A stretch of 64,000 nt of DNA from Chloroflexota bacterium (GCA_012514315.1 JAAZAN010000111.1:1000-64999); one strand, 5' to 3'; counted from the first letter of the stretch, positions 9,950-59,046 are shown. Numbers and translations are program-made. The notes: generated by a model not told the origin, from the sequence alone.

Positions 9950-12900
9950 ATGTTCACTCCGTCCAGTCCTTTGTGTCCCCGAATCCGTCGGCTGGCAACG
10001 TGGTGCCTCCTGCTGCTTCTGGCCTGGGGTCTGTGGCTGTGGCAGCTGGATGCTAGCGACCTGACGTTCGACGAAGCGGCGACCTATCTGGTGACTGATC
10101 GCTCTCCGTTAGCCGTCGTCGAGTACCTGCGGGGTGCGACCTATGAGCATCCTCCTGTCTACTATCTGTTGATCCGCTTCTGGGTGGCGCTGGCCGGCAG
10201 CAGCGAATTCTGCTTGCGTGTTCCGTCGGTCGCCGCCGGACTGCTGTGTCTGCCGTTGGCGGGTTGGGTGATGCGGGCGGCGTGGGGACGCCAGGAGAGG
10301 TGTGCAGAGATCGCGGCGGCATTGGTGCTGGGGGCGATGCCCGGGATGGCCTACTACGCGCGTGAGGCGCGTATGTACAGCGTGGTGATGGTGTGGGCGC
10401 TCATCTCGTCCGGCCTGTTCTTGCGCGACTGGGCGACCGCGCGGAGATGGCCTTCCTTGACGGCGGTGGCTGAGCTCGCAACGGTCCATCTTCTGTCACT
10501 GGCGACGCATTACTACCTGTTCCTCTTCATTCTCGTGCAGCCCGCTGTGTTGGTGATACGACGTCGTTGGCGCCCGCTTGTCGCCTGGGTGGCAGTCCAT
10601 TGTGCGCTGGCAATGGCGGCGCTGGTCTGGCTCAGTCTGGCGCCCGGCCTGCAGATGACGGCCGCTGGAATTAGGTTCGACATAGGGCGTCTCATTCCGC
10701 CGTGGTCGGAGCTGGAGCGTCTGCTGGGCAAGCTGCTGTTCAGCCCGGTCGTTGCCTACCAGGTGGGCCATCTGGTCGTCGTACTGTTGATTGTTGTGGC
10801 TGGTATGGTCGGTGCGCTCTGGGTGCGGCCCGCCGCTGGGGTCTACCTGCTGTGTGCGCTGCTATTGCCATTGGGCCCGGTCTTCGCCCTGCCGCGGGTT
10901 CCGGCGCCTCGCTACGTTGTCTTCTGGTTGCCGGCTATGGCGATCGCGGTTGGTTTCCTGACCGGGATGATGAGGCCTGTGGGCGCCGGGGCATTCCGTG
11001 TCGAGGCGCTTCTCGAAGCGCCTCGACCGAACGCGTCTCAACCGGATGCCTCCCTGCACCGCCTGCCCTGGCAAGGCGCGTCGCTATGGAGACAGGTTCT
11101 CATGTGCCGGTTGAGCTTGCCGGGAATAAGCCTGCTTCTGCTGTCGGGCATGGTATTTGTGCTAGTGTCCGGCGGACTGCGCGAAGCGCTGAGCCTGGAG
11201 CGGTCTCGATATGGCCGCACGCTTGCGACGGTCCAGGCTAACGCTCGAGTGGATGACGCGCTCCTCTTCTATGGTCCCTGGCAGGAAGTTCAGTTGCGCT
11301 ACTACGATCCTGGGGGCCTGCCGCCGATCGTGAAGCTGCCGCCGCAGGCGCCGCCGCTGTTGGACCCGGCGCAGGCGGAGCCGGTTCTGGAGCGTCTGTT
11401 CGCACTGTCCACGCGCAGGGTGTGGGTGCTGCCGGCTTCCGTGGCCGATGTGGACCCGGAAGGGTTTGTCGCGGATTGGCTCACTACGCATACACACACC
11501 GTATGGCGGACTGACGACTTCGCGCTTCACCTTCCAGCGCTGGGCGCCGGGCGACCATTCCAGGAACTCGATCTGACGTTTGGTTCGAATCTGGATCTGG
11601 AGAGCATCGTGTTTGAGGGATCTGTTGTGCCAGCGGGTGAGCCGTTCCGCTTCACGCTATACTGGCGTCCCAGCGCTCCACTCGAACATGATGTGCGCGT
11701 GAGCCTGTCTCTGGTCGATGAGGGTGGGCGTGTGTGGGGAGTGAGGGAGAATGTGCCGGGCGAATGGGGGGCACGGCCGTCGGCCTGGCAGCCAGGGGAA
11801 CGGATTGCAGACTACGAGGGATTCGTCTTGCCGCAGGGCGCGCCCGCTGGGCGTTACACGGTGCGTCTGTCGGTTCGGGATAACGAGACCGGCGACACGT
11901 TGTTGGTCGCGGGACGGCGAGATGTCGAGCTCGTGTCATTGTGGGTCGCGCCGCCGATCTATCCACCGGTACTGACCGACGAGGATCAGTCCGACTGGAT
12001 TGCGTTCTGCGATCCGGAGGGAGTGGAGTGTGTCACTCTCGTGGGCTGCGAGCCAGGTGGGGTGAGGTTTCAGCAGGGCTACGCCGTCCCTTTCTCGTTG
12101 AACTGGCTGACGCCCGATACGCTTAGCGCCGATGTCCGGGTGCGGCTTACGCTGGCGTCGCGGGGTCCGTGGCCCTGGCGAGAGCGTGCTGTTCTGGCCA
12201 CCCGTGACGTAGCACTCCCCGAGCGATCACTGTCCCGTCTGGATGTGCTGGCGTCCGAACTGCTGGATGAAGCCCCGTACAGCGCCTTTCTGCCGATGGC
12301 GCAGGTCGATCGGGATCTGACTCCTATGCAGCGAGACTCGGTGTTCTGGGGGCAGCGTCTTCTGACGTTGATCGACGCGATCGGTCTGCCGGTGGATGTC
12401 CCGACGGGACAAGCGTCGGTTGAGTTGGAGGTGCTGGGAACGGATGGAACGGCATGGGTGACGGCCACGGGCGCACACGGGGTGTCGCTGTTCGACATCA
12501 CGATCGAGGGCCGCCCGGTGCAGCGGCGGCTGCCCGCTGGTCTGGAGGGCGTCGAGGTGGACTTCGGAGAAGAGGTGGGGCTACGGGGCTACCGGATCGA
12601 GGGAGACCCGCGGCCCGGCGGCGAAGTTCGCATCACGTACGGCTGGTACGCCCGGACGCGTCCCACAGCTATCTACGCGGTCTTCAATCATCTGATGACG
12701 GTGGATGGGAAGCCGGTAGCCCAGAAGGATGGTTGGCCGCAGGATGGACGACTCTTGACTACAGGATGGCAGGTGGGTGAGTACATTGAGGATCACTACG
12801 TCCTGTCGATCCCGACCGATGCGCCGCCCGGCCCGTATCGGCTCCACGCGGGGATGTATAACGCGGCGACCGGCGTGCGCACGTCAGCGCACCAAGAGAA

Positions 12901-12952
12901 CGTCCGCCTGACGAACGATGAGTTGGTGCTGGAGGTCACGGGTAACCGTTGA
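9950..12952 (+). CDS. GT-C (ArnT/PMT, GT39-like) membrane glycosyltransferase with three C-terminal Ig-like domains
   Basis: LTFDEAAT, HPPVYY and EARMY motifs; many TM segments; C-terminal repeats FG..L.G...W...D..P...W..G...Y.L..G.Y. Start moved to ATG 9950 because of the promoter position. Confidence 0.85.
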   Translation: MFTPSSPLCPRIRRLATWCLLLLLAWGLWLWQLDASDLTFDEAATYLVTDRSPLAVVEYLRGATYEHPPVYYLLIRFWVALAGSSEFCLRVPSVAAGLLCLPLAGWVMRAAWGRQERCAEIAAALVLGAMPGMAYYAREARMYSVVMVWALISSGLFLRDWATARRWPSLTAVAELATVHLLSLATHYYLFLFILVQPAVLVIRRRWRPLVAWVAVHCALAMAALVWLSLAPGLQMTAAGIRFDIGRLIPPWSELERLLGKLLFSPVVAYQVGHLVVVLLIVVAGMVGALWVRPAAGVYLLCALLLPLGPVFALPRVPAPRYVVFWLPAMAIAVGFLTGMMRPVGAGAFRVEALLEAPRPNASQPDASLHRLPWQGASLWRQVLMCRLSLPGISLLLLSGMVFVLVSGGLREALSLERSRYGRTLATVQANARVDDALLFYGPWQEVQLRYYDPGGLPPIVKLPPQAPPLLDPAQAEPVLERLFALSTRRVWVLPASVADVDPEGFVADWLTTHTHTVWRTDDFALHLPALGAGRPFQELDLTFGSNLDLESIVFEGSVVPAGEPFRFTLYWRPSAPLEHDVRVSLSLVDEGGRVWGVRENVPGEWGARPSAWQPGERIADYEGFVLPQGAPAGRYTVRLSVRDNETGDTLLVAGRRDVELVSLWVAPPIYPPVLTDEDQSDWIAFCDPEGVECVTLVGCEPGGVRFQQGYAVPFSLNWLTPDTLSADVRVRLTLASRGPWPWRERAVLATRDVALPERSLSRLDVLASELLDEAPYSAFLPMAQVDRDLTPMQRDSVFWGQRLLTLIDAIGLPVDVPTGQASVELEVLGTDGTAWVTATGAHGVSLFDITIEGRPVQRRLPAGLEGVEVDFGEEVGLRGYRIEGDPRPGGEVRITYGWYARTRPTAIYAVFNHLMTVDGKPVAQKDGWPQDGRLLTTGWQVGEYIEDHYVLSIPTDAPPGPYRLHAGMYNAATGVRTSAHQENVRLTNDELVLEVTGNR
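11000..11027. repeat. Perfect 13-bp inverted repeat (REP-like palindrome) inside a CDS
   Basis: gtcgaggcgcttc-tc-gaagcgcctcgac. Confidence 0.85.
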
Positions 12953-14967
12953 GCAGACGGCAGCGATCCTGGCTCTGGGGCATGGTGGTTACTCTGCTGG
13001 CGGCCTGCGCGCTGCGACTGGTGACGTTCGGCCAGCTTCCACCCGGACTGTACCACGATGAGGCCTACAACGGTCTGGATGCGGTGGACGTTTTGGCCGG
13101 GGATGTCCCATTATACTTCGCCGCCAACAATGGCCGTGAGCCGCTGTTCATCTACATGATCGCGCTGTCTATTGGCGTTCTGGGGAGAAGTCCATTCGCG
13201 TTGCGTCTCCCTGCCTTCTTTGTGGGCGCCCTGACTGTGGCGGCTACTGGGGCGTTCGGACGCACGCTCTTCTCGCGGCGAGTGGGACTCATCGCGGCGG
13301 CGGTGCTGGCCGTCACGTTGTGGCATGTGCATCTGAGCCGTGTCGGATTTCGGGCGGTGTTGCTGCCACTGCTCAGTGTGCTGGCGGCCTGGCAGGCAAC
13401 ACATGGGGTCAGGACCTGCAGGCTGGGGCATTGGATGGCTGCAGGAGGGCTGTACGGGCTGTCGTTTTATACGTACACCGCCTCCCGCTTCACGCCGGTG
13501 GCGCTAGGCGCCTTTGGCGTCTATCTTCTGCTTGTCCGCCGGCGATTCTGGAGCGGGTCGGTAGGCCGTGGGGTGGCCATCGCAGCCGGGACGGCTCTGC
13601 TGACGGTCTTGCCGTTGGCAGTCGTCACTGTTCTGCATCCTGCGATGGTGCTGGGGCGGCCCGGTCAGGTATCGATCCTCGACCCAGCCATTCACGGCGG
13701 CGACTTCTGGGGTGAGCTATTCAGGCAGTTCTGGCGCACGCTGGGCATGTTCTTCGTCCGGGGCGACCGAATCTGGCGCCACAATGTGCCGTGGCGTCCG
13801 ATCTTCGATCCTATCCTGAGCGTGGCATTTGTGATCGGGTTGGTGGTCGTACTGCGTCGCGCCCGCAGTGACGCGGCCGGGGGTTTTCTGCTGGTGTGGA
13901 TCGGAGCGATGGCAATGCCCACGTTCCTGGCCGAGGATGCCCCGCATTTTCTGCGGAGTGTCGGCGTCCTGCCCTTCGCCGCTTTCCTGCCGGCGCTGGG
14001 CATAGACTGGATCGTGTGCCGCAGTCGGAGCGTCCGGCTGCGGGCGCTAATCGCTGTCCTGTTCCTGCTTTTCGCAGCGACGAGCACAGTGCGGGCTTAC
14101 TTCTGGGACTACGCGCGCACCCCGACAGCAGCCTATTGGTTCGAGCAGGGGGCGACATCGCTGGCGGGCCGCGTGAACGGCTTTCTTGGCTCGGGCTGGG
14201 ATGGGCGCCGTATGGTGCGCAGTGGCACGGGTGAACGGTGCGTGGTGATCGATGCGCGGTTGTGGAATGAGTGGCCACAGGTTCGCTTCCTGGTTGGGCA
14301 GGAGTACTCGCCTGCGCAGGACTATCTGTCGCTTGGGCGTCCAGCGGTCGGGCGCCCGGTTGGGGTGTTTGTCTGGCCGTATGATGATTGGCGCTGGGCG
14401 TGGGAACTGCTGCCGACGCCGGCAGAGGTCATAGTGGAACAGGGGGCGCTCTCACAAGGTGATCTGGACCCCGAGCCCTATACGACCTACGTGGCCTTCT
14501 TGGGGGCGCCACCGGCGGCGGAAACACCGTCCGCAATGGCGCGCTTCACGTCGGGTATTGAGCTCCTGGCGGTCGAGACCGCGTCGATGCCCGATGGGCG
14601 GATACGGGTCCGCCTAGTCTGGCGGGCGCCTACGGGGGGACCTGCGCCAGCAGAGTGGCAGACCGAGGCGCTCCTGCAAGCGGACTACACCGTGTTTCTG
14701 CACTATCTGCGCGATGGGGAGAGAGTCGCCCAGGCGGACAGTCCGCCAGCTCAGGGCTACTATCCCACGACGCAGTGGCGGTTGGGCGATGTCGTGAACG
14801 ATGATCACTTCGTCGTACTCGACGCCGTAGGCGAGGCCCGTGAGCCGATCCCCGGGCGTGATGTCGTCCGGTTTGGCTTCTGGCAGCCGGAAAGCGGCGC
14901 CGTGCTGCCCTTGCTGGACGACGCTGGAAATGCGGTGGGTGATTGGGTCGAGGTGCCGGTACGATGA
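12949..14967 (+). CDS. GT-C (ArnT/PMT family) glycosyltransferase with a C-terminal Ig-like domain
   Basis: PPGLYHDEAYNG, GREPLF, HLSRVGFR, APHFLR; TTGA overlap with the upstream gene. Confidence 0.88.
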   Translation: MSRRQRSWLWGMVVTLLAACALRLVTFGQLPPGLYHDEAYNGLDAVDVLAGDVPLYFAANNGREPLFIYMIALSIGVLGRSPFALRLPAFFVGALTVAATGAFGRTLFSRRVGLIAAAVLAVTLWHVHLSRVGFRAVLLPLLSVLAAWQATHGVRTCRLGHWMAAGGLYGLSFYTYTASRFTPVALGAFGVYLLLVRRRFWSGSVGRGVAIAAGTALLTVLPLAVVTVLHPAMVLGRPGQVSILDPAIHGGDFWGELFRQFWRTLGMFFVRGDRIWRHNVPWRPIFDPILSVAFVIGLVVVLRRARSDAAGGFLLVWIGAMAMPTFLAEDAPHFLRSVGVLPFAAFLPALGIDWIVCRSRSVRLRALIAVLFLLFAATSTVRAYFWDYARTPTAAYWFEQGATSLAGRVNGFLGSGWDGRRMVRSGTGERCVVIDARLWNEWPQVRFLVGQEYSPAQDYLSLGRPAVGRPVGVFVWPYDDWRWAWELLPTPAEVIVEQGALSQGDLDPEPYTTYVAFLGAPPAAETPSAMARFTSGIELLAVETASMPDGRIRVRLVWRAPTGGPAPAEWQTEALLQADYTVFLHYLRDGERVAQADSPPAQGYYPTTQWRLGDVVNDDHFVVLDAVGEAREPIPGRDVVRFGFWQPESGAVLPLLDDAGNAVGDWVEVPVR

Positions 14968-17900
14968 GCGTGCGCGGCGGAGTGTTGAGCACGGAGCGTG
15001 CAGCGATTATCCTACTGGTGTTGGTCGCGTTGCTGATATCCGGGCCGATCTGGGGGCCGGGTATGATCAACACTCGGGGGGGCGGTGATAGTCCGTTCTT
15101 GCTTCAGCGACTCGATCAGGTTGTCGTGAATATGCGTTCCGGCGTGTTCCCGGCGCGGTGGATGCCGGATGCGGCGTACGGGTTGGGCTATCCCTTCTTC
15201 AACTACTACTCCGCGCTACCCTATTACCTGGGTGGTCTGTTCGTTCTGCTGGGGCTAGACATACTGACCACCCTGAAGCTGATTCAGACGCTGGGGTTTG
15301 TGGCGGCCGCGCTGGCCATGTTCGGGTGGATGCGCGGTCACACACGCAGTGCGTGGGCAGCCTGGCTGGCCGCAGTGGCCTACACGGCAGCTCCTTTCCA
15401 TCTGGTGAACGTCTATGTGCGGGGCGACTCGCTGTCGGAGTTCTACGCCTTCATCTTCTACCCGCTGATTCTCTGGGGGCTGGACCGTGCATTGGCGGCG
15501 ACGAGCACACAGACGGGCGCCTGGACGAGGATCCGTTCGCCGTTGAGTATGTGGAGCGCTGGCTTCTCCCGTTCCGCTGTTTGGCTCTGGCCGGCGCTGG
15601 CCTACGCGGGCCTGATCGCATCGCACAACATCTCGGCGCTGATCTTCTCGCCGTTTGTCGGGCTCTATGTCGTCTGCGTGAGCCTGGGCCAGCGGAGAGT
15701 GGCGGGCCGGATGCTGTTCACCGGTGTGCTGGCGCTGGGTATGGGGATCGTGCTTACCGCGTGGGTGTCGTTGCCAGCGCTCCTTGAGCGGGCCTCTGTA
15801 CAGTCCGATATGCTGACCGGTGGGTATTTCCACTATACCCAGCACTTCCGCACGATGGACTTGGTTCAGTGGCGCCCGTTCTTTGTGTACGACATTGGGA
15901 GCACGGGCGAGACACCGTTCGCTATGGGCCTAGCACAGGCTGTTCTGACGATCGCTGGTGGAGCAGTTCTGGTGGCGCGTGTTCTGAGACGGCAAGCTGG
16001 GGTGGTGGACGTGTTCATACTCGTTGGCCTGCTGCTTTCGACACTCATGATCACACCACTGTCGGAGTTGGCCTGGCGTCACCTGCCGTTGCTGCCCACC
16101 ATCCAGTTCCCATGGCGCTTTCTGTCGGTTCAAGCTCTGTTCACGGCCGCAACCACCGTTGCGCTGATCCCGGAGCGAGGGCCGCACCGTGGCGCATCTC
16201 TGGCGGCGCCGATCGCCGCGATGATCATCGCGGCGGTGCTTGTTCCTCTGCGGCCGGAGCGGCTTTCAATCAATCCTGAGGATGTCACGACTGAGCGGCT
16301 CCAGCTATATGAGTTGTTCACGGAGAACATCGGGACGACAATTCGGTATGAATGGCTTCCGCGGGCGGTGGCGCCGCGGCCCTTCACATCGGAGGCGCTC
16401 ATCGAACCTGATGCTATCCCTCGAGCGATCCCGCTGGATGGGACGGAGAGCGAGACGGTGCTCATTGAGCGAGGGGCGGCGCGCTCGACCTGGCGGACCT
16501 CAGGCGAGGGCGGCGACGCCGCGTTTCCGCTGCTGTACTGGCCTGGATGGCGTGCCCAGGTCGATGGGGTGTCCACGCCGGTTTGGTCGGTCGAGGGCTC
16601 GGGCTATCTAGCGCTCACTCTGCCGCCTGGCGAGCATATCGTCACGCTGCGGCTGTACCCGACCTGGACCCGAGCGCTCGCTGGGGTGGTATCGCTGTGC
16701 GGTCTGCTGACCATCGTGGCGTTGGTCATCCGTTGTCGGGAGGAGATCGACTGGCGGCCTGCGGGTATAGGCGTGGCCGCGGTGCTGCTGGTGGTCTTGG
16801 GGTTGCGCGTCATGACTGGCCGTCCGCAGCCTGTGTCGCAGACGGACCTGACGATGGACTTCGATCGGATGCCCTACCTGCATCACAATCCGGCAGGCAT
16901 CACGTTCGGAACGGTCGACGATGTCGTTGTCCGCTTGGACGGTTACACCCTATCGGCTGAGGTGTTGGCGCCAGGCGACACGCTGGCAGTCGGCATGGAT
17001 TGGGCGGGCGCCGCTGAGAGTCACATTGCCCGTGTACGGTTGGTTTCGCCGGCCGTCCTGCGCCACGAGATCATGCCATTGGCTGAGGCGACTTGCGATC
17101 TGGGTTCCGATGATTGTGGCCTTGTGCTGCTCAAGACTCCCGCAGAGATCGCGAGAGGCGTCTATCTGCTCCAATTGTCCGTTCTCGCTCCCGACGGCCT
17201 GCGGGTTCCGGCACGCTCGTCGGATGAGCACACGTACGGTGTGCTCTATCTGAAGCCGGTGCGAGTGCCGGACGGCCCGGCGCTGCCCGTCGAGACCTCG
17301 GTCCTGGCCCCCTACGGCCCGGCGGTTCGTCTGCACGAGGCGACGATCGAGGCGGCTGGTTCGGATCACATTGGGGTCAGCCTGTCCTGGTCGACGCGGT
17401 ACCGGATCGGCGCGAACTACGGAATCTCCTTGAGGCTGTTGGATGCTCAGGAACACGCGGTTGCGGTCCTCGATACACAGCCGGGCTACGGATTCCTGCC
17501 CACCAGTCTGTGGCGCCCGGGGGAGCTTGTCGATGATCACTATATGCTTGCGTTGTCCGACGGCGCAACTCCTGGGGATGGGTATCACCTTCTCGTCATC
17601 CTGTACCAGGTCTCGACTGGCGAGGCGGTGGGCCAGGCGCGTCTGGGCGATTTCTCGCTGCCGCTGGAGTCGGCGGTTCACATCCAGCGCCCGCCCCGCA
17701 GCGATGTGCTGCCTGCTCTGGAGCATGTCGTTGGCGTGGACTTTGGTGGCGCGATCCGGCTTGCGGGGTGCGATTTCGAACGGCGAGATGACCTGGCGCG
17801 CGTGACACTTTGGTGGCAGGCGCTATCGTCCGTGGAGGAGGATTACACGGTCTTTGTACACCTCTTCGATCCGCGCGACGAATCGGTGCCGGTGCAGAGT

Positions 17901-18128
17901 GACGCTATGCCTCAGGCCGACGCCTATCCAACGTCCTGGTGGGTCGAGGGTGAGGTGATCAGCGAGACGGTGGCGCTACCGCTGGGGGGCGTGGCGGCGG
18001 GAAGTTATCGCATCGCGGTTGGAATGTACGATGAGGACCTTGTTCGACTTCGTGCTATTGGCCCCGATGGTGCGGCAGTCCCCGATGATCGGGTGGTTCT
18101 ACCCGTGGAGGTCAACGTCGAGTTGTGA
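14964..18128 (+). CDS. YfhO-like / PTPS-related membrane protein (putative GT-C) with Ig-like repeats
   Basis: RWMPD...GLGYPFFNYY, RGDSLSE, IQFPWRFL, YWPGWRAQVDG; ATGA overlap. Confidence 0.85.
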   Translation: MSVRGGVLSTERAAIILLVLVALLISGPIWGPGMINTRGGGDSPFLLQRLDQVVVNMRSGVFPARWMPDAAYGLGYPFFNYYSALPYYLGGLFVLLGLDILTTLKLIQTLGFVAAALAMFGWMRGHTRSAWAAWLAAVAYTAAPFHLVNVYVRGDSLSEFYAFIFYPLILWGLDRALAATSTQTGAWTRIRSPLSMWSAGFSRSAVWLWPALAYAGLIASHNISALIFSPFVGLYVVCVSLGQRRVAGRMLFTGVLALGMGIVLTAWVSLPALLERASVQSDMLTGGYFHYTQHFRTMDLVQWRPFFVYDIGSTGETPFAMGLAQAVLTIAGGAVLVARVLRRQAGVVDVFILVGLLLSTLMITPLSELAWRHLPLLPTIQFPWRFLSVQALFTAATTVALIPERGPHRGASLAAPIAAMIIAAVLVPLRPERLSINPEDVTTERLQLYELFTENIGTTIRYEWLPRAVAPRPFTSEALIEPDAIPRAIPLDGTESETVLIERGAARSTWRTSGEGGDAAFPLLYWPGWRAQVDGVSTPVWSVEGSGYLALTLPPGEHIVTLRLYPTWTRALAGVVSLCGLLTIVALVIRCREEIDWRPAGIGVAAVLLVVLGLRVMTGRPQPVSQTDLTMDFDRMPYLHHNPAGITFGTVDDVVVRLDGYTLSAEVLAPGDTLAVGMDWAGAAESHIARVRLVSPAVLRHEIMPLAEATCDLGSDDCGLVLLKTPAEIARGVYLLQLSVLAPDGLRVPARSSDEHTYGVLYLKPVRVPDGPALPVETSVLAPYGPAVRLHEATIEAAGSDHIGVSLSWSTRYRIGANYGISLRLLDAQEHAVAVLDTQPGYGFLPTSLWRPGELVDDHYMLALSDGATPGDGYHLLVILYQVSTGEAVGQARLGDFSLPLESAVHIQRPPRSDVLPALEHVVGVDFGGAIRLAGCDFERRDDLARVTLWWQALSSVEEDYTVFVHLFDPRDESVPVQSDAMPQADAYPTSWWVEGEVISETVALPLGGVAAGSYRIAVGMYDEDLVRLRAIGPDGAAVPDDRVVLPVEVNVEL

Positions 18129-20494: not shown

Positions 20495-20543
20495 TAGCGT
20501 GGACGCGAAGGGTTGGAGTGGGGCTGATTGGGAGTCTGGGGGC

Positions 20544-27786: not shown

Positions 27787-27799
27787 TGGCAGGAGATCA

Positions 27800-29197: not shown

Positions 29198-29225
29198 ACC
29201 GCACGCTCGGAGTTCCAGACAGGTG

Positions 29226-29254
29226 TTGACCGGATGATGTGACCATGGTATGAT
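29226..29254 (+). promoter_or_regulatory. Sigma70-type promoter of the DUF4956-VTC-CotH operon
   Basis: TTGACC-N17-TATGAT with extended -10 TG. Confidence 0.7.
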
Positions 29255-29323
29255 GACCTCCCGCGAGTTCACTGCGGACTAGAACGAGTCGACAAGTTGG
29301 ATCGATAGGTAGGTAAGGTCAAT

Positions 29324-34990: not shown

Positions 34991-34999
34991 GAATTGGAC

Positions 35000-44478: not shown

Positions 44479-44611
44479 GCCTCTTTCATGGCCGGTCACT
44501 CGGACGAGCAGCGCTCATCTCGGAGCGTACGATCTGAGCTGTGTGCTTGTGGATGGTGATGGACGATCTGAAGACCGAATGTCGTGCTAATATTCTGGAG
44601 AGGTGACTGAA

Positions 44612-50994: not shown

Positions 50995-52647
50995 TTGAAC
51001 GATTTCCAGATTTTGGGCTTGCGGACTGAACTACTGCAAGCAGTCAGTGAACTGGGTTATCAGACGCCGACCGCGATTCAGGCGCGCGCTATTCCGATCC
51101 TGTTGTCGGGTCGAGACATGATGGGCCAGGCCCAGACTGGCACGGGCAAGACGGCGGCCTTTGCTCTGCCCATATTGAATGGACTAGACCTGGATCTTGT
51201 GGGTGTGCAGGCACTGGTTCTGACCCCAACACGGGAACTGGCGGACCAGGTTGCTCACGCTATCCACGAGTACGGGCAGCATCGGCAGGTGCGCGTCCTG
51301 CCGGTCTATGGCGGGCAGTCCTATAGCCGTCAGATCAGTCGTCTTCAGCGGGGCGTTCATGTTGTGGTCGGCACCCCAGGTCGTCTGCTGGATCTGTTGG
51401 GGCAGGGCGTCCTGAACCTTAGCAGTCTGCGCTTCCTGGTGCTCGATGAGGCAGATGAGATGCTGAACATGGGATTCATCGAGGACGTCGAGGCGATCCT
51501 GAGTCAGACGCCTACGGCGCGTCAGACCGCCTTGTTCTCGGCGACGCTGCCTGAGCCGATCCGTCGGCTCTCCGACCGGTACCTTCGTGAACCGGAACTG
51601 GTTGTGACGAGCAGTACCCGATTGACTGTGGATCAGACAGAGCAGCGGCAGTATCTCGTTTCTGAGTCCGACAAGTTGGCCGCCCTCCTTCGCCTGCTGG
51701 AGATGGAGGAGGGGATCAGAAACATCCTGAACTTCGTCCGCACCAAGATCGGGGCTGGAGCACTGGCTGAGGCGCTGCTGGAGCGAGGTGTTCAGGCCGA
51801 TGCCCTACACGGCGACCTGACTCAGCCGATGAGGGAGACGGTATTGCGCCGCTTCAGGGATGAGACACTCCCAGTAATGGTAGCAACGGATGTGGCAGCT
51901 CGTGGTCTGGATATCGACGATATCTCCCACGTCATCAACTATGATGTTCCGTTGGACTCGGAGGCGTACGTTCACCGGATCGGGCGTACGGGGCGTGCCG
52001 GAAGGACTGGCGTGGCGATCACCCTGGTCACTCCACAGGAACGCTGGCGTATGGATCGGATTGAACGGTTCACGAAACAGGCCATCGCACGGGCCACATT
52101 GCCCGGGAAGGCCGATGTGCTGAACCGACGCAAGGAACGCTTTCTCAGCCGATTGAGTGATCGGTTCACACCGGAACTTGTCGATGATGAACGTAGAATG
52201 GTCGAGCGACTCGTCGAGGCCGGCTATGATCCTGCCGATATCGCTGCCGCAGCACTTCGCCTGGCTCGGGAAGGTGAGAGACAGTGGGCTGTGGACGAGA
52301 TCTCCGAAATCAGAGAGCCAGCAAGGCGTGAGGTAACAGCTCGTCGCACGGGGCGGCGGGATTCCAGGGCCGATGGAAGGCGCAGACAGCGAGCAAGATC
52401 TCGTTGTGAAGCGGGCATGGTGCGGATATCGATCAATCTAGGCAAGGAACAGGGCATCCGTCCCGGTGATGTTGTAGGCGCCATTGCCAATGAGGCGGGC
52501 ATTCCGGGCAAGGCGATCGGCGCTATCGACATTCAGCGGCAACAGACGTTCTTCGATGTGGTGGATCAACATGCGGAGCGTGTGCTGCAGGGCGCGGGTC
52601 GGTGGAAGCTGCGGGGGCAGCCTGTCATGCTGAAGTGCGTCGACTGA
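50995..52647 (+). CDS. deaD: DEAD-box RNA helicase with a C-terminal DbpA RNA-binding domain (DeaD/CsdA-like)
   Basis: Q motif, AQTGTGKT, PTRELA, TPGR, DEAD, SAT, ARGLD, HRIGRTGR; IRPGDVVGAIANE. Confidence 0.93.
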   Translation: MNDFQILGLRTELLQAVSELGYQTPTAIQARAIPILLSGRDMMGQAQTGTGKTAAFALPILNGLDLDLVGVQALVLTPTRELADQVAHAIHEYGQHRQVRVLPVYGGQSYSRQISRLQRGVHVVVGTPGRLLDLLGQGVLNLSSLRFLVLDEADEMLNMGFIEDVEAILSQTPTARQTALFSATLPEPIRRLSDRYLREPELVVTSSTRLTVDQTEQRQYLVSESDKLAALLRLLEMEEGIRNILNFVRTKIGAGALAEALLERGVQADALHGDLTQPMRETVLRRFRDETLPVMVATDVAARGLDIDDISHVINYDVPLDSEAYVHRIGRTGRAGRTGVAITLVTPQERWRMDRIERFTKQAIARATLPGKADVLNRRKERFLSRLSDRFTPELVDDERRMVERLVEAGYDPADIAAAALRLAREGERQWAVDEISEIREPARREVTARRTGRRDSRADGRRRQRARSRCEAGMVRISINLGKEQGIRPGDVVGAIANEAGIPGKAIGAIDIQRQQTFFDVVDQHAERVLQGAGRWKLRGQPVMLKCVD

Positions 52648-52713
52648 ATCAAGGACCATCTGGCCGTCAGTCTTTCCGCCTGGATCGAGGCGGCGTTTCG
52701 GCGAAGGGCGCCT

Positions 52714-53277
52714 TCACTCCAGATTGGCGTGGCGGGCGAGCATCTGAGTCGGGGTGAGACGCAGCTCATCCATGAGCTGCACGGTGACCAGGTCGAGCAA
52801 CAGGCCCAAGGATTGCTCAAAGAGTGTTCCCATTGGCTGTATCGATCTCAGTCCTGAATCCTCAGCCAGCTTGGGGGTGGGAGCTGCTATCACGATGACA
52901 GTGTCTGCCTCGGTAGCCAGAGGGGAGCGATCTGTTGCAGTGATCAGGGCGATGTGCGCCCCTGCGGCCCGGGCGCACCGGGCGTGTCCGACCAGCGAAG
53001 CGGTCTGCCCTGAGGCGGACCCTAGAACAAGCGTATCCGCTGGTTCGATAGCCGGCGCGGTGACCTCTCCAACAACGTGGACGGTAATCCCTAGATGCAT
53101 CAAGCGCATGGCGAATCCCCGCATCTGCAACCCGGACCGACCTTGCCCGTCCACGAATACTCGTGGCGCCGCGAGGATACTCGAGCGGAGTGTGCCTAGC
53201 GCCGCGCTGTCGACCGATTGAAGGGCGCCGGCCAGTTCCTGAAACAGGAGTGGTAGCAATTCACTCAGTGTTGCCAC
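52714..53277 (-). CDS. hxlB: 6-phospho-3-hexuloisomerase (SIS domain)
   Basis: GRSG..FAMRLMHLG, PMGTLFEQ, C-terminal HANLE. Confidence 0.9.
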   Translation of the reverse strand: MATLSELLPLLFQELAGALQSVDSAALGTLRSSILAAPRVFVDGQGRSGLQMRGFAMRLMHLGITVHVVGEVTAPAIEPADTLVLGSASGQTASLVGHARCARAAGAHIALITATDRSPLATEADTVIVIAAPTPKLAEDSGLRSIQPMGTLFEQSLGLLLDLVTVQLMDELRLTPTQMLARHANLE

Positions 53278-53384
53278 AGAAATCCTTCTTTCTCGAGAAC
53301 GTCGATGGATGGATGCACTCCACGTGCGACCCGCAGGGATATTTCACGAGAATGTCTCTCGACTGTGATTCCAGACAAGAGCAG

Positions 53385-53412
53385 AGTATAATGGCCAGCA
53401 AGCGGCTGTCAA
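53385..53412 (-). promoter_or_regulatory. Sigma70-type promoter for hxlB, overlapping a + strand TATAAT
   Basis: TTGACA-N16-TATACT on the minus strand; TATAAT at 53387-53392 on the plus strand. Confidence 0.6.
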
Positions 53413-53455
53413 CGCCCGGTTGATACAAGACAGGTGTTGAGCCGCCGAATACGAC

Positions 53456-54400
53456 ATGTGTGAGCCTACACGATGCGCCCATTCTGCGCCAGGCAGCTGG
53501 CCTCATTGGATCGTTCTCCCGGTGGTACTGGCCATTGTTTTGCTGCTGACAATCGCCGCGTCAACCGGAGTTGCTGATCAAACGCTCGATCTCACTCCAG
53601 AAGCGTGGTTATTCCTGCCGTCGGTTCGTCTGGACCCAACGCCTACCCCATACGCGTGTCCATCAACGTCGGACAACCAAGTCGTCCGGGGAACGGCCTT
53701 TCAGTATGACAGAGATGACCCGGTGCGCCCTGCCGTTGACCACGCCGACAAGAACCTGGCGTTGAGAGGCTACGTCCCCAATACCGATCCGCGTCTCCTG
53801 CGGCAACTGGTTGACTACGGCTCCGATGATCCAAGACAGCCGCCCCAGTTTGCCACCCTGTTCACGCCGTACCGCGTGCCCAGCCTTACGAGCTTCTATC
53901 AGGCGCACGACTGGTACTGGGCGCCGTCACCGGAGATCGGAGCCAGAGGAACGCCCATCACCCAGCCACAGGTCACGGCGCTCGGCCTGAACACCACGCC
54001 AGGTGAGACCCTGCGGGTTCCGGTATCGGGCTATGAGATTGGGATCGACGTCGAGGTCTTAGTCCTCTTTGCCGATAGCGATACTGTTGCACTGCGCTAT
54101 ACCCGCGACGACAGTTCTGGCGCTCCGGGCTACACGGTGCACGTCGATCAGATATGCACGGATCCCAACCTTCTCGCGCTGTACAACGAGCTAGACCGTG
54201 CCGACGGACCACGCTACGTGTATCCCAATCCCTCGTATGACCTGCCGGTCCTGGCAGCCGGACAGCCACTTGGTACCGCGCGGGACACCAAGATCGTCGT
54301 GGCAATAGTGGATACTGGAGCATTTCAGGATCCGCGATCGTGTAATGAATGGTGGCAGATCAGGCCGGGGTACTCCTTGGGCTGTCCCTCGCACGAATAG
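53456..54400 (+). CDS. Secreted/membrane-anchored hypothetical protein
   Basis: Hydrophobic N-terminal segment, LFLPSV motif, PTPTP linker, Cys-containing globular domain. Confidence 0.75.
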   Translation: MCEPTRCAHSAPGSWPHWIVLPVVLAIVLLLTIAASTGVADQTLDLTPEAWLFLPSVRLDPTPTPYACPSTSDNQVVRGTAFQYDRDDPVRPAVDHADKNLALRGYVPNTDPRLLRQLVDYGSDDPRQPPQFATLFTPYRVPSLTSFYQAHDWYWAPSPEIGARGTPITQPQVTALGLNTTPGETLRVPVSGYEIGIDVEVLVLFADSDTVALRYTRDDSSGAPGYTVHVDQICTDPNLLALYNELDRADGPRYVYPNPSYDLPVLAAGQPLGTARDTKIVVAIVDTGAFQDPRSCNEWWQIRPGYSLGCPSHE

Positions 54401-54490
54401 ACCTTCTGCGCTCATTGCCGGAGGCCGCTCTCTGTGCGGTGAGCTGGCCGATCGTTTGAGGTGCACGCAGCCGACAGACCGACACTTTGT

Positions 54491-54518
54491 TTGTCGCTGA
54501 TCTTGGCGATGGTATAAT
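54491..54518 (+). promoter_or_regulatory. Sigma70-type promoter
   Basis: TTGTCG-N16-TATAAT with extended -10 TG; implies the CDS starts downstream of the ORF-track start. Confidence 0.65.
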
Positions 54519-54540
54519 CCGAAAAGTGACTGGCAGGTGG

Positions 54541-57498
54541 GTGCAGCGAAAGGCTCTGATGGTGCGGCGGGCAGCCGGTATCGCTGCAGGGCTGTTTCTC
54601 GTTCGTGTGGCGCTGGAAGCCACGCTGAGCCCTGTATCCGGCGCGTGGATAGTGCTCGCAGTTGTGGCTGGAGGGGTTTCAGGCTATTTCGGCGGGCGGC
54701 AGGTCGAGAGATGGGGTGGGTCTCTCTGGTCTGCGTACGTGCTCTTGGGCTACGTCGTCTGGCCGCAACGCGACCCCCTTGCGGCCGGCATCCTTCTCAT
54801 CCTGGCGCTTTTGGTCTGGCTCCTCTCCGCCAGCCTCGATAGGCTGCCCCGTGCGGCGGTAACGACCACGGACGTACTGACTTTTCTGATCCCACTGATC
54901 ATCTATGGACTTACCGTATCTCCCGATGTCCTTCCGGCTGACTCGGGTGAGTTCCAGCTTGTTGCTGCTCGGTTGGGAGTAGCCCATCCGCCAGGATACC
55001 CGCTGTATACATTGGCTGGCCATCTCTTCACGCGTCTCGTTCCATGGGGAACACCTGCCTATCGGCTCAATCTGATGAGCGCAGTTCTGGCGGCGGGAAC
55101 GCTGCTGCTGTTGAGTCGCGCGTCGCGCATTTGGGCGCGCAAATTGGGTCTGCCGTCCCATGTGGCTTTGGGTTCCGGTGTGGCCGCTGCACTCACGCTG
55201 GGCAGTGCGACAACTTTCTGGGCGCAGGCGACGATTGCCAACATCCGTATGCCTACGGCATTCTGTACTGCCTGGGCGCTCCATGCCCTGGCGCGCTATG
55301 ATGCGGCGGTGGGCCGGCATGCAGCGGATCGCGCACTGACCGCACTGGGACTTGCGCTCGGCCTGGGGTTGGGGCATCATCCATCGTTGGTATTTCTGGG
55401 GTTCTTCTTGGTTCTCTACGCAGTGTTGGTTGACCCGGCCCTGGTCCTGCGGCCGAGACGCTGGTGGCGGCCCATGTTGGCCGGACTTGTCGGATTGCTG
55501 CCTTATCTGTATCTGCCTATCGCTGGGTCCCGCGATGCTCTGTTGGCGCCGTCCAGGCTGGACACGCTGGATAGCTTTCTGCAGCACGTCCTGGCGCGGG
55601 GATTCGCTGGAGACATGTTCGCGTATGCAAACACGAGCGACCTATCTCACCGGCTGACGCTTCTGCCCACGCTGTTCTCGTTCCAGTTCAATGGCCTGGT
55701 CCTCTTGGCTGCCGTGGTTGGTATGGTCGCGTTACTTTGCCGCTGTTGGCGTCTATTCGTCCTGGTCGCTGGCAGCATAGCGGTGCACACCTTCGTGACG
55801 GTGACTTACCGTGCACCCCAGACGGTTGAGTATCTGATGCCGGCTTACCTGCCCATCGCGCTCTCTGTGGCCTTCGTACCCTCGGCATATACTGCAGCAG
55901 GCCGTTCGAGGTGGGTAGTGCGCGGGTGGCGCATTGCCCAGGAGCTGCTGGTGGCTGCGACGACATGCGGGGCCCTGCTCAACGGTCACGCGCATGCGAC
56001 TAGTTTTCTGGAGCTGGCGGCCGATCGCTCGACTCGTGAAGCGGTTCTGCCATTGCTGGAGCAGTCGCCTGCTGATGCACTCATTCTGGCCGATTGGCAC
56101 TGGGCGACGCCGCTATGGTACTTGCAGCACGTCGAGGGACGCCGGCCTGATGTCGATGTGCAGTATGTCTACAATGTGTCAGGCGAGGAGTACTGGGTGA
56201 CGTGGGAGAGACGGATTCGTGAGGCGCCGATGGATCGGCCGTTGTTGTTGACTCACTTCTATACCTTTGACGGCTACACGACTGAACCCTGGGGATACGG
56301 GTTCGCGATTCGACCGAGACCGGTGACGACACCCCTCACCCCACTCGAGCCTCTGGATGTTGTGTTTGGTGACAGGCTGCGCGTGCTGGGATATCGAGTG
56401 CAGCCGTCAGATGTCAGCCCTGGCGACGTTGTTGAGTTGGATATCGCGTGGCAGGCGACGGGCTCGCTGGAGAATGCGCCGTCGTTTACCGTGCGTCTTG
56501 GAGGCGATGCGGGGGAGCGGCTTGCACAGGCTGATCAGGCTCTCGATCCGGATGTTGAGATCGGTGAGGTGCGTTTCGAGCGTCTGGTACTGCCGCTTTA
56601 CCCCAGCCTGGAAAGCGGGCGGCACTGGCTACAACTGGGAGCTTACACGGTGACCGCTGACGGATTTGAGGATTTGACCACGTCGACAGGGGCCACGAGT
56701 GTCGCGCTGGGCGGTCTTCTGCTGGCACCCAACATGGATCAGCCTTTCTCACTACATTCCAGGAACATACCATTCGCGCACGGGCCGGAGCTCGTCGGAG
56801 TTGACTACGATCGCACCGTACCGGATGTTCTACGTGTCTATCTGCACTGGCTCGGGCCGACCGCGCCAGGCTGGCAGATCGAGTTGAGTAGCTCTAATCG
56901 GCCACCACCGGCATCCGGACCTGAGTATGTAAAGGCGCTGCCGGAGGCGGAGGCTGGAGTTTATCAGACAGTCGTGGTAGACTTAGTTGGCGAAGAGACC
57001 GGTTCGGTCTGGCTGACGCTGATTGGACCTGCTGGGGAGGTGAAGCCAGCGGCGGGGCCTTGGGGATGGCGTGTGGAGCAGGTGCGGTTGCCAGAACCGC
57101 CGTTGGATGCGCGGTTTGTGCCAATCGGCGGTGAACTCGCTGTTGTCGACGCGACGGCACGAACGGCTGCGCCAGGAGGGACCGCGACGGTGGACGTTAC
57201 CTTCGTGGGGCTGAACCCTCTGGTTAGCGACTACGCCGTGAGCGTGCGCCTGATGGATGAGGGGGGGCAGTGGCTTGCGCGGCACGATATGCAACCTGCA
57301 CAGGGCGCCGTACCCACGTTGAAATGGATCCGCGGAAGCAGGGTCGTGGATCGTCACCTGTTGCCCGTTCCGGAGGGAGATGTCGGTCAGACGGTACAGG
57401 CGGGCCTGGTGGTGTATGAACGATTCCGGGAGATCGTCTTGCCGCCACTCGATGGGCGGTTTCGTGACGTGCCTTTGGGCACCTGGGCACAGCCCTAA
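54541..57498 (+). CDS. DUF2723/TMEM260-family protein O-mannosyltransferase-like GT-C with Ig-like domains
   Basis: DSGEFQ...LGVAHPPGYPLY signature; many TMs; start uncertain (GTG 54541 or ATG 54559). Confidence 0.87.
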   Translation: MQRKALMVRRAAGIAAGLFLVRVALEATLSPVSGAWIVLAVVAGGVSGYFGGRQVERWGGSLWSAYVLLGYVVWPQRDPLAAGILLILALLVWLLSASLDRLPRAAVTTTDVLTFLIPLIIYGLTVSPDVLPADSGEFQLVAARLGVAHPPGYPLYTLAGHLFTRLVPWGTPAYRLNLMSAVLAAGTLLLLSRASRIWARKLGLPSHVALGSGVAAALTLGSATTFWAQATIANIRMPTAFCTAWALHALARYDAAVGRHAADRALTALGLALGLGLGHHPSLVFLGFFLVLYAVLVDPALVLRPRRWWRPMLAGLVGLLPYLYLPIAGSRDALLAPSRLDTLDSFLQHVLARGFAGDMFAYANTSDLSHRLTLLPTLFSFQFNGLVLLAAVVGMVALLCRCWRLFVLVAGSIAVHTFVTVTYRAPQTVEYLMPAYLPIALSVAFVPSAYTAAGRSRWVVRGWRIAQELLVAATTCGALLNGHAHATSFLELAADRSTREAVLPLLEQSPADALILADWHWATPLWYLQHVEGRRPDVDVQYVYNVSGEEYWVTWERRIREAPMDRPLLLTHFYTFDGYTTEPWGYGFAIRPRPVTTPLTPLEPLDVVFGDRLRVLGYRVQPSDVSPGDVVELDIAWQATGSLENAPSFTVRLGGDAGERLAQADQALDPDVEIGEVRFERLVLPLYPSLESGRHWLQLGAYTVTADGFEDLTTSTGATSVALGGLLLAPNMDQPFSLHSRNIPFAHGPELVGVDYDRTVPDVLRVYLHWLGPTAPGWQIELSSSNRPPPASGPEYVKALPEAEAGVYQTVVVDLVGEETGSVWLTLIGPAGEVKPAAGPWGWRVEQVRLPEPPLDARFVPIGGELAVVDATARTAAPGGTATVDVTFVGLNPLVSDYAVSVRLMDEGGQWLARHDMQPAQGAVPTLKWIRGSRVVDRHLLPVPEGDVGQTVQAGLVVYERFREIVLPPLDGRFRDVPLGTWAQP

Positions 57499-57561
57499 TG
57501 CAGGTCGTGGCATCGGCAGGCGCTGAGGCCCTGTAGACCTGTGTTCGAATGGAATGCTGCG

Positions 57562-59046
57562 ATGATGACTCAAAGCTGGTTATTCCGTGTGTTCACCTCG
57601 CGTCACCGCTGGCTCAGCGTTCTGGCAACGTGGTTGCTCTGTGCTGGAGCGGCGGTGATTATCGGATACTTGCTGGCGGAGTTTGGTGTGGTGGTTGCGG
57701 CTGCCGGCCTCGCCGGGTTGCTCGCGGGCCTCTGGGTGTTGGGCGGTATTGAGAGGGCCTACCTGGCCGTCATCGGGGTCGTGTGTCTGTTGCCGTTTGC
57801 CTCGTTCCCGATCGATATCGGTTTCACCCCCACGCTCTTGGATGCGGCGCTAGGCGCCCTCTTCTTCATTTGGATTGTGAGGGTCGCGACCGGTAAGCAA
57901 CGTGAGTTCATCGGCACGCCGCTGGCGCTGCCCGTTACGGTGTTCATCCTGCTGGCGATCGGCGCGTTTGTTTTTGGACTGGCGCATGCGCCCCTAACCA
58001 GTTACCTCGTGCGTCACTTTGCCGAAGTGATGCTCAGTATCGCAATGTTCTTTCTTGTTGTGAATACTGTGCGTGATATCGAACGCCTTGAGCGGATCGT
58101 ACGGATGCTGATTGTATGCACGTTTGTTACTGCGGTTGTAGGTATTGCACTGTATGTGATAGCGGATCAAGTATCGCGCGATCTGGCGATTAGAGCACTG
58201 TCGGCGCTTGGGCGCCTTAAGTATCCTACGGGGCCTGGCGTTCTCCGCTACATTATGGAGGATCCTGAAAGGCCCCTGCGAGCGACCTCAACGTCGGTCG
58301 ATCCTAATGTGCTGGGCAGCCTGCTCAATATTGTGGTGGCTATTGCAGTGCCCCAGTTGTTCGCACGGCATCCAATCTTTCGTCGCCGCTATCTCCTGCC
58401 GATGCTGGGCGCCACAGCGCTCTGTCTGGGGCTGACCCTGAGTCGAGGAGCTCTGGTCAGTATGAGCGTTGCGTTGGTGATCATCGCAACGCTCCGGTAT
58501 CGGAGACTGTGGCTGATGCTATCGGGGGGGGCTGTCCTGATACTGCTGCTCCCTCAGACGCAGAGTTACGTCGCTCACCTGATCACAGGCTTCCGCGTCG
58601 GTGATCTGGCGACACAGATGCGATTCGGGGAGTATAAGGATGCGCTGATTCTGATCGGCCGCTACCCGTGGTTCGGTGTGGGATTTGGTGCTTCACCCGA
58701 TATCGACACCTACATTGGAGTATCCAATGTATACCTGTTGATCGCTGAACAGATGGGGCTGATTGGGTTGGGTAGTTTTCTCTCGGTCATCCTGGTCTTT
58801 CTTATCAGCTTCTGGCGAAACCGCAGCCGGGCTGCGATGTCGCCCAGGTTAGAGCCGCTCTGGTGGGGACTTCACGCTGGGATTATGGGGGCGTTGGTGG
58901 GCGGTCTTGTTGACCACTACTTCTTCAATCTGGATTTTCATCATTCGGTTACGCTGTTCTGGCTGGTGATTGCTCTGGCAACTACCGCGACCACTTTGAT
59001 CGGCCGCAGAGAGTGCGATGATGCCAGGCAGCCGGCCGGCAGATAG
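57562..59046 (+). CDS. O-antigen ligase/Wzy_C family membrane protein
   Basis: RA.ST..DPN.LG, LTLSRGA, R...PWFGVG.G, N.YL..AEQMGLIGL. Confidence 0.85.
   Translation: MMTQSWLFRVFTSRHRWLSVLATWLLCAGAAVIIGYLLAEFGVVVAAAGLAGLLAGLWVLGGIERAYLAVIGVVCLLPFASFPIDIGFTPTLLDAALGALFFIWIVRVATGKQREFIGTPLALPVTVFILLAIGAFVFGLAHAPLTSYLVRHFAEVMLSIAMFFLVVNTVRDIERLERIVRMLIVCTFVTAVVGIALYVIADQVSRDLAIRALSALGRLKYPTGPGVLRYIMEDPERPLRATSTSVDPNVLGSLLNIVVAIAVPQLFARHPIFRRRYLLPMLGATALCLGLTLSRGALVSMSVALVIIATLRYRRLWLMLSGGAVLILLLPQTQSYVAHLITGFRVGDLATQMRFGEYKDALILIGRYPWFGVGFGASPDIDTYIGVSNVYLLIAEQMGLIGLGSFLSVILVFLISFWRNRSRAAMSPRLEPLWWGLHAGIMGALVGGLVDHYFFNLDFHHSVTLFWLVIALATTATTLIGRRECDDARQPAGR

Follow-up and report, generated by a model that had tools for sequence, protein, structure and literature searches.

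A composite concentration of predicted GT-C glycosyltransferase genes in an uncultured Anaerolineae bacterium

Why would a bacterium keep 13 genes for predicted glycosyltransferases of the GT-C type within about 49 kb, with no recognizable gene for donor synthesis among them? The DNA in question, hereafter the window, is a stretch of 64,000 nucleotides (G000:C53:1000-64999) within a 77.8-kb contig of the 4.29-Mb metagenome-assembled genome (MAG) of an uncultured Anaerolineae bacterium. Between positions 9890 and 59046 we counted 25 non-overlapping open reading frames (ORFs), all of them intact, which comprise 13 predicted multi-pass GT-C glycosyltransferases, one Wzy_C/O-antigen-ligase-like protein, and 11 other genes. 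A first-pass annotation of the window had read this region as a super-cluster specifying a single extracytoplasmic assembly line. We consider it probable that the region is instead a composite concentration of extracytoplasmic GT-Cs that would depend on lipid-phosphate sugars and modify an envelope polymer, made up of at least four separately inherited blocks.

Gene content and family identity

The flanks of the window hold ordinary chromosomal genes (by Pfam, dnaX, recR, and comEC upstream, and prfA and prmC downstream), and the named homologues of its proteins come nearly all from Anaerolineae, Anaerolineales, or Chloroflexi MAGs. At a density of 41-65 GT-C genes per 4.29 Mb, a stretch of 49 kb should contain 0.5-0.75 of them, and the Poisson probability of finding at least 13 is below 2e-12. 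The clustering seen in the first-pass annotation is thus far beyond chance, but 11 of the 25 genes are of other kinds, unrelated genes break the GT-C run at 50995-54400, and an envelope cassette, a helicase, and an isomerase had gone unmentioned. In agreement with that annotation, Pfam and NCBIfam scans of the 25 ORFs revealed no domain of glycosyltransferase families 2 or 4 (GT2, GT4) and none for nucleotide-sugar, flippase, or ABC proteins; of the genome's 41 GT2 matches, none lies on this contig. Start codons were set mechanically, and genes are named below by their first coordinate. Gathering cut-offs are 26.1 bits for PMT_2 (PF13231), 28.5 for YfhO (PF09586), 26.4 for PTPS_related (PF10131), and 31.7 for Wzy_C (PF04932). 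The predicted GT-Cs and the Wzy_C-like protein are as follows (aa, amino acids; TM, transmembrane segment; pLDDT, predicted local distance difference test score of the AlphaFold 2 [AF2] model).

9890-12952, plus strand: GT-C, 1020 aa, PMT_2-like (24.2 bits; 29.8 in six frames), FDE after the first TM, 8 TM
12949-14967, plus strand: GT-C, 672 aa, PMT_2 (40.2 bits), HDE motif
14943-18128, plus strand: GT-C, PTPS_related/YfhO family, 1061 aa, three C-terminal beta-sandwich copies
18125-20494, plus strand: GT-C, 789 aa, PMT_2 (52.8 bits), first of five 18125-type paralogues
20499-22667, plus strand: GT-C by predicted fold (AF2 pLDDT 89.9), 722 aa, C-terminal domain like the Wzt carbohydrate-binding domain (CBD)
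23775-26234, plus strand: GT-C, 819 aa, 18125-type paralogue, SDE motif, PMT and PMT_2 matches weak
26224-27786, plus strand: GT-C, 520 aa, PMT_2 (30.4 bits), PDE motif
34994-37015, plus strand: unnamed GT-C-fold protein, 673 aa (AF2 pLDDT 86.2)
39606-41999, minus strand: GT-C, 797 aa, PMT_2 (51.7 bits), IDE motif
41996-44368, minus strand: GT-C, 790 aa, PMT_2 (35.1 bits), LDE motif, ATGA overlap with 39606
46111-48354, plus strand: GT-C, 747 aa, DUF2142 (31.6 bits)/PMT_2 (36.8 bits in six frames), PDE motif
48370-50853, plus strand: GT-C, 827 aa, 18125-type paralogue, PMT_2 (31 bits in six frames), VDE motif, 42% identity to 23775
54487-57498, plus strand: GT-C, 1003 aa, TMEM260-like (PF11028, 97.7 bits), DSGE motif, C-terminal beta-sandwich copies
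57541-59046, plus strand: Wzy_C/O-antigen-ligase-like, 501 aa, 10 TM (PF04932, 47.5 bits against a cut-off of 31.7)

That all 13 are GT-C-type enzymes is supported by hidden Markov models (HMMs), orthologues, or predicted fold, with transferase activity predicted. Ten were called by Pfam or paralogy, 14943 on the strength of its orthologues plus one profile match, and 20499 and 34994 by AlphaFold models; together they represent at least six sequence families. Pfam returned PMT_2/PMT, DUF2142, TMEM260-like, or weak YfhO/PTPS_related matches for 12 of them and nothing for 34994, and nine proteins exceed the cut-off for PMT_2, DUF2142, or TMEM260-like. Scanned protein by protein, PMT_2 is over its cut-off in 12949, 18125, 26224, 39606, and 41996, and under it in 9890, 23775, and 48370; in a six-frame search of the genome, eight of the nine matches on this contig are over it, including 9890, 46111, and 48370, with 23775 under (22 bits). 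A search against the sequences of PDB chains gave no match for 18125 and one chance match for 34994 (E 0.021). The hydropathy scan finds five to nine TM in each GT-C and ten in 57541, and so the annotated count of 13 multi-pass GT-C-like proteins plus one Wzy-like protein holds up by TM scan, Pfam, paralogy, and fold. The product of 57541 may be either a ligase or a polymerase; its sequence does not discriminate between the two.

A conserved acid in the first extracytoplasmic loop is the usual catalytic feature of GT-C enzymes. Ten of the 13 proteins carry an acidic motif after the first TM, as the annotation had noticed for most of them: FDE and PDE twice each, HDE, SDE, IDE, LDE, and VDE once each, and DSGE. 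The remaining three (14943, 20499, and 34994) have a conserved Asp there, which brings the count to 13 of 13; in the 14943 family all 22 sequences have this Asp, in the 20499 family all 32 have it (as D56), and in the 34994 family it is at least 90% conserved among 25 sequences. Oligosaccharyltransferases of the STT3, PglB, and AglB kind are marked by a WWDxG motif in their external domain. The WWD motif is absent from all 14 proteins (the 13 GT-Cs and 57541), and therefore none of them is an STT3-type oligosaccharyltransferase. Judged by family membership, the enzymes would draw on polyprenyl-phosphate-linked sugars.

Three of the proteins required closer inspection. The 14943 product scores 19.4 and 16.2 bits against YfhO and PTPS_related, below both cut-offs, and shares 20-23% identity with YfhO-like loci of Enterococcus. 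It has 1415 homologues at E <= 1e-5, and most of the 120 listed carry PF10131, some PF09586. Its membrane domain matches that of the 20499 family in hhalign (probability 95.5%, E 1.5e-8). For 20499, 30,569 representative homologues were found at E <= 0.001, and a 32-sequence alignment was used for the AF2 model. In VIA-align, the top 13 structural matches are all GT-C proteins, led by AglB (Z 20.4, root-mean-square deviation [rmsd] 5.8, 455 residues aligned) and followed by STT3 (Z 19.8), DPY19 (19.0), Pmt1-Pmt2 (18.9), and AftD (18.8). Although AglB and STT3 are its best fold matches, a role as oligosaccharyltransferase was ruled out by the missing WWD motif. Its match to YfhO/PTPS_related is sub-threshold (17.4 bits), PTPS_related matches occur in six of the 32 sequences of the family, and a discoidin domain takes the place of the local C-terminal domain in nine.

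The 34994 protein has no Pfam or NCBIfam match, apart from a weak similarity of its C-terminal part to DUF4832 (E 0.0067), and all of its 52 homologues at E <= 1e-5 are unnamed. The AF2 model, obtained from a 25-sequence alignment, has a compact 12-helix membrane domain, a small alpha/beta domain, and two beta-sandwiches. Compared with 48,161 chains in VIA-align, it returned GT-C folds in all top 19 rows, mostly glycosyltransferases along with entries of the GPI-transamidase subunit PIG-U: Pmt1-Pmt2 (Z 19.2, rmsd 3.1, 259 aligned), Pmt4 (18.1), STT3 (18.0), AglB (16.9), AftB (16.6), PglB (16.5), and ArnT (14.5). When the whole model is submitted to Foldseek, beta-sandwich proteins dominate (RbmA, transglutaminase, and arrestin), with AftD and ALG12 lower down; VIA-align separated the domains. 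Together, these assignments complete the HMM and structure classification proposed in the first-pass annotation, with a GT-C outcome for all 13 proteins.

A shared ectodomain and the likely acceptor

The C-terminal 100-250 residues are common to proteins of different GT-C families, as detected by BLAST. When the whole alignments of the 34994 and 14943 families were compared as profiles, they matched in this C-terminal part only, with a probability of 99.9% (E 3.5e-37). HMMs derived from both beta-sandwiches of 34994 recognize 12 of the 13 GT-Cs, with one to three copies each and 26224 as the exception, and none of 12 other proteins scanned; in 9890, the C-terminal beta-sandwich repeats lie at residues 567-674 and 891-1013. 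Genome-wide, 35 ORFs carry the domain, 29 of them with at least five TM. It spans about 120 residues (examples are encoded at 17343-18125 and 47491-48351) and its fusion partners are nearly always GT-C membrane proteins. No Pfam model describes it: seven C-terminal fragments searched at E <= 10 gave no match in six cases and weak beta-sandwich families only in one. A Wzt_C annotation is present on one homologue, and in the models of both 34994 and 20499 the domain resembles the Wzt CBDs 6o14 (Z 9.8 and 10.4) and 7k2t (Z 9.6 and 10.0). The ectodomain appears to be a candidate for a new family, akin in fold to the Wzt CBD, and the models give a hint that this GT-C-associated beta-sandwich is probably glycan-binding.

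In the composite reading, each GT-C would move a sugar from its lipid carrier to an envelope polymer on the outer face of the membrane, while the Wzt-CBD-like beta-sandwich would hold the glycan acceptor. The predicted presence of such a domain on 12 of the 13 enzymes leans the acceptor towards a glycan. Unlikely, in our estimate, is the alternative that the region encodes mainly protein O-glycosyltransferases of the PMT/TMEM260-like kind decorating secreted or anchored proteins, among them the following two.

22684-23763, plus strand: anchored or secreted protein, 359 aa, N-terminal domain plus fn3/Pur_ac_phosph_N-like domain (Pfam weak), 1 TM
44603-46111, plus strand: anchored or secreted protein, 502 aa, N-terminal domain plus two fn3-like domains (Pur_ac_phosph_N, 36.2 bits)

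The best Pfam names in the region are indeed those of protein mannosyltransferase families (PMT_2, PMT, and TMEM260-like), and Pmt1-Pmt2 is the best structural match of 34994. Moreover, both fn3 proteins directly adjoin GT-C genes, and the pairing of a 44603 homologue with the 46111 orthologue (58% identity) recurs in the relative G018. PMT_2, however, also covers ArnT-type modifiers of lipids and glycans, and the name leaves the acceptor open. The fn3 proteins contain 17-19% Ser plus Thr without any long Ser/Thr-rich tract in their sequences, the Pfam scan of the region's proteins reported no MIR domain, and the Wzt-CBD-like domain on nearly all of the enzymes again speaks against protein acceptors. 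The two fn3 proteins are 29% identical to each other; a homologue of 22684 follows the CotH cassette of G003 described below, and the Atlas neighbours of 44603 fall into fn3 and CBM_4_9 clusters, which is a lead only.

Separately conserved blocks and old paralogues

Could the whole 49 kb still be a single co-regulated assembly line for the stepwise construction of one wall or sheath polymer? Tight packing argues for this, in addition to the clustering: four-base start/stop overlaps occur at six junctions (TTGA, GTGA, and ATGA twice each, the three types already noted in the first-pass annotation), most other junctions are shorter than 20 bp, and no gap between ORFs is big enough to conceal another gene. 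A comparable array with at least eight GT-Cs and the same cassette also lies on one 37-kb contig of G003. Conversely, the orientation changes at 39543/39606 and 44368/44603, the two GT-C genes in between (39606 and 41996) being on the minus strand, the run is broken by a helicase gene and a hexuloisomerase gene, and the blocks are unlinked in most relatives. Taking these points together, we judge a single assembly line to be improbable.

Conservation was followed in samples of six to ten loci per block, with relatives that are not independent of one another. Orthologues of 14943 occur in 28 of 30 relatives (E <= 1e-10) and those of 54487 in 27 of 30 (E <= 1e-30), compared to only six of 30 for the CotH gene 36997; in all six relatives examined, the 14943 and 54487 orthologues are on different contigs. 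In five of six relatives, no more than 4 kb separates the 12949 and 14943 orthologues, and this pair is kept across the order. G001 adds 18125- and 23775-like genes at this place and G010 adds the 9890 orthologue (48% identity); at E <= 1e-20, no other window gene was detected around the 14943 orthologues of six genomes. At the far end, a Wzy_C gene with 63-70% identity follows the 54487 orthologue in four of ten loci, all within the same family. The middle of the window has its counterpart in G003, a member of another genus. The 37-kb contig C371 of this genome carries a 23775-like gene, a 46111-like gene, adjacent orthologues of 41996 (67%) and 39606 (59-60%), a homologue of 26224 (44%), and further GT-Cs, and continues with FGE, DUF4956, 29986, VTC, 32378, the 34994 ectodomain, 36997, and an fn3 protein, with the cassette at about 25590-34900. 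Hence, the middle of the window has a rearranged counterpart elsewhere, and both ends are independent blocks. Judged by this gene order, the "super-cluster" is a mosaic of separately conserved blocks and not one pathway; sub-blocks are kept together among the Chloroflexota relatives, but their overall order is not, and the proposed single assembly line is not supported.

The composite would comprise at least four such blocks. The first holds 9890, 12949, and 14943, extended by 18125-type genes; the second the five anciently diverged 18125-type paralogues together with 26224; the third an envelope cassette with FGE-like, DUF4956, and VTC proteins and three CotH-like proteins that would face outwards, plus the unnamed GT-C-fold protein; and the fourth the TMEM260-like GT-C paired with the Wzy_C ligase/polymerase-like protein. 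The genes of the cassette, apart from 34994, are listed here.

27800-29197, plus strand: anchored FGE-sulfatase-domain protein, 465 aa (PF03781, 176 bits)
29324-29989, plus strand: DUF4956 membrane protein, 221 aa, 4 TM (PF16316, 61.9 bits)
29986-31668, plus strand: anchored CotH-like protein, 560 aa, paralogue of the N-terminal half of 32378 (31% identity over 492 aa), no Pfam match
31665-32381, plus strand: VTC (polyphosphate-polymerase-like) domain protein, 238 aa, no TM (PF09359, 84.1 bits)
32378-34990, plus strand: anchored CotH-like and right-handed beta-helix protein, 870 aa (CotH 28.5 bits, Beta_helix 31 bits)
36997-39543, plus strand: anchored CotH kinase-family protein, 848 aa (CotH PF08757, 84.4 bits; Flg_new_2, 34.8 bits)

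The DUF4956, VTC, and CotH families are adjacent and co-oriented within 29324-39543, with 34994 included, and G003 has the same order. Orthologues of 32378 share 54-56% identity in G003 and G029. All six loci with a 36997 gene have a 34994-like gene, and an FGE-like gene, kept beside the cassette, and GT-C genes are present at four of them. The 34994 family itself varies in architecture: of 34 homologues, 25 are long, five are short and anchored, three are cut at the N-terminus, and one has a different membrane domain. In the long form, the ectodomain is joined to the 12-helix membrane domain, and in the short form the same ectodomain comes with a single anchor. The 27800 protein has a PTPTPTP linker and a C-terminal domain of about 150 residues without assignment.

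A set of cotH, polyphosphate-polymerase (VTC), DUF4956, and DUF4832 genes has been described as an accessory, of unknown function, beside Gram-positive pel loci (Whitfield et al., bioRxiv 10.1101/768473). As outlined there, DUF4956, VTC, and CotH likewise form one co-oriented block beside polysaccharide genes; the block reported here differs in having three CotH-like proteins, a GT-C-fold protein, and an FGE-like neighbour, in lying among PMT_2 rather than pel genes, and in its weak match to DUF4832 only. The layout of the cassette, with a VTC protein lacking TM and three anchored CotH-like proteins, suggests a route for phosphate from the cytoplasm to the outside. More speculatively, and with little confidence on our part, 26224-44368 could be one conserved Anaerolineae envelope system that both glycosylates and phosphorylates a wall polymer outside the membrane. 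VTC and DUF4956 would export polyphosphate as phosphoryl donor for the CotH-like kinases, in an outside compartment without ATP, and the product would be a teichoic-acid-like phosphoglycan that makes up the unexplained outer layers of Chloroflexota envelopes.

The remaining genes of the region are a helicase, an isomerase, and an anchored protein.

Start at 50995: DeaD-type DEAD-box helicase (Pfam)
52714-53277, minus strand: 6-phospho-3-hexuloisomerase HxlB, the ribulose monophosphate (RuMP) isomerase (203.7 bits against a cut-off of 160)
53456-54400, plus strand: anchored Pro/Asp-rich protein, 314 aa, 1 TM, no Pfam or NCBIfam match

A sugar-nucleotide function for the SIS gene at 52714 was ruled out by its HxlB score, and 53456 lies between this gene and the TMEM260-like gene. 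Upstream of the region, a beta-lactamase-family ORF of 272 aa (6600-7418) covers only positions 75-312 of the 329-position Pfam model, and may be truncated at its N-terminus or have a mis-set start.

The five 18125-type paralogues (18125, 23775, 39606, 41996, and 48370) share 32-42% mutual identity, with 23775 at 36-42% to the other four over the full length. Their orthologues in other genomes are closer: 48-60% for 18125 (G001, G003, and G023), 60% and 52% for 39606 (G003 and G023), 67% for 41996 (G003), and 55% for 48370 (G010). In a tree of 30 sequences, 18125, 39606, 41996, and 48370 each group with orthologues from other genera at 100% support in the Shimodaira-Hasegawa-like approximate likelihood ratio test (SH-aLRT), and 23775 groups with the 48370 clade at 95%. 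The duplications are therefore older than the genera and, in the case of 18125 and 39606, older than the family split as well; recent tandem amplification as the source of the five paralogues is ruled out by the tree. This ancient divergence fits the specialization of paralogues that the first-pass annotation had put forward, and different paralogues may serve different linkages or acceptors. A large GT-C complement is usual throughout the class: PMT_2 is found at E <= 1e-5 in all 61 sampled genomes, with 5 to at least 50 matches per genome, a median of about 29, and 37 in the present genome. GT83 appears among the abundant glycosyltransferase families of Anaerolineae and Chloroflexi in surveys of carbohydrate-active enzymes (PMC6306507, PMC11650866), and our literature search combining GT-C with Anaerolineae or Chloroflexi found no relevant paper. 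Finally, that several paralogues are not transferases at all (GT-C-fold scaffolds, PIG-U-like subunits that bind acceptors, or duplicates in decay) is very unlikely: PIG-U, a non-transferase GT-C fold, does occur among the structural matches (Z 13.3 and 10.1), the 34994 family has forms without the membrane domain, and several Pfam scores are sub-threshold, but all frames are intact, the Asp after the first TM is conserved or invariant in every family checked, and orthologues are held at 48-68% identity across genera.

Donor supply and comparison with known systems

According to the composite reading, polyprenyl-phosphate sugars would be made by GT2 synthases encoded elsewhere and then flipped across the membrane. 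We scanned 12 of the genome's 41 GT2 matches, in each of which membrane segments follow or flank the GT2 domain. Five of them match best the models for ArnC, AglJ, dolichyl-phosphate hexose transferase, PgfS, or PpgS (C29:3549, C29:1130, C167:65025, C288:11879, and C292:9339), C167:65025 matching the ArnC model over its full length with 202 bits. Two of these candidates flank a PMT_2 gene on C29. The GtrA family is represented by one gene in the genome, on C31 (85.6 bits). A second array, at G000:C167:52969-66047, has four GT-C genes, three of them YfhO/PTPS_related-like and longer than 1000 aa, followed by the ArnC-like GT2; it is thus a GT-C array carrying its own candidate donor synthase. 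Scattered components have a precedent in Listeria, where three components of such a system have widely separated locus tags, as given in PMC8035078.

A supply of donors in trans, as the first-pass annotation had proposed, is plausible given the lack of donor genes in the cluster and the five GT2 candidates and one GtrA gene elsewhere, but none of the five reaches its NCBIfam equivalog cut-off, the best at 202 against 529 bits. Several further points weigh against the composite reading. The membrane domain of 34994 has no profile similarity to those of the 14943 or 20499 families (probability 0.5% and 3.2%), and the 34994-type gene in the cassettes of G003, G029, and G025 lacks the length needed for a membrane domain, so that the GT-C domain may not be central there. 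The ectodomain matches the Ig-like domains of glycoside hydrolase family 2 about as well as Wzt (Z about 9-10), because of which glycan binding stays a hint. The TM counts come from a crude Kyte-Doolittle hydropathy scan, the paralogue tree is a quick IQ-TREE version, and the source genome is a MAG of 354 contigs with 90% completeness and 6.7% contamination.

Many GT-C enzymes working side by side are familiar from mycobacteria and corynebacteria, where EmbA/B/C, AftA, AftB, AftD, and PimE build the complex wall glycans arabinogalactan and lipoarabinomannan (LAM) from polyprenyl-phosphate sugars outside the membrane, and where AftD-type enzymes carry carbohydrate-binding ectodomains. The region described here resembles this system in its many GT-C paralogues, and AftA, AftB, AftD, EmbA, and PimE are among the structural matches of its proteins. 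In contrast to the mycobacterial enzymes, its proteins show no membership of these families at the sequence level (Pfam and NCBIfam), and they belong to a different phylum with a different envelope.

A second point of comparison is the three-component system of Gram-positive bacteria, which consists of a CsbB/GtlA-type GT2 synthase, a GtrA/GtcA flippase, and a YfhO/GtlB/GacL-type GT-C, and for whose large GT-Cs extracellular carbohydrate-binding domains have been proposed (Rismondo, Gillis and Grundling, 2021, PMC8035078). Similar to the systems outlined there, the YfhO/PMT_2-type GT-Cs of the window would act outside the membrane on cell-wall polymers, and the genes for donor synthase and flippase can lie at a great distance from that for the GT-C. 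Unlike those systems, which have one or two GT-Cs each, 13 lie in one stretch here, and the genome has one GtrA gene.

The composition of the layered envelope of Chloroflexota is not settled, and its layers have been "suggested" to be polysaccharide or protein (PMC13319060). Anaerolineae have dozens of GT-C genes per genome, in old and separately conserved paralogue lines, with an ectodomain common to nearly all of those in this region, and one GT-C line is tied to the unexplained DUF4956-VTC-CotH cassette. The gene sets identified in this study could now provide concrete candidates for testing how this envelope is built in cultured Anaerolineae.

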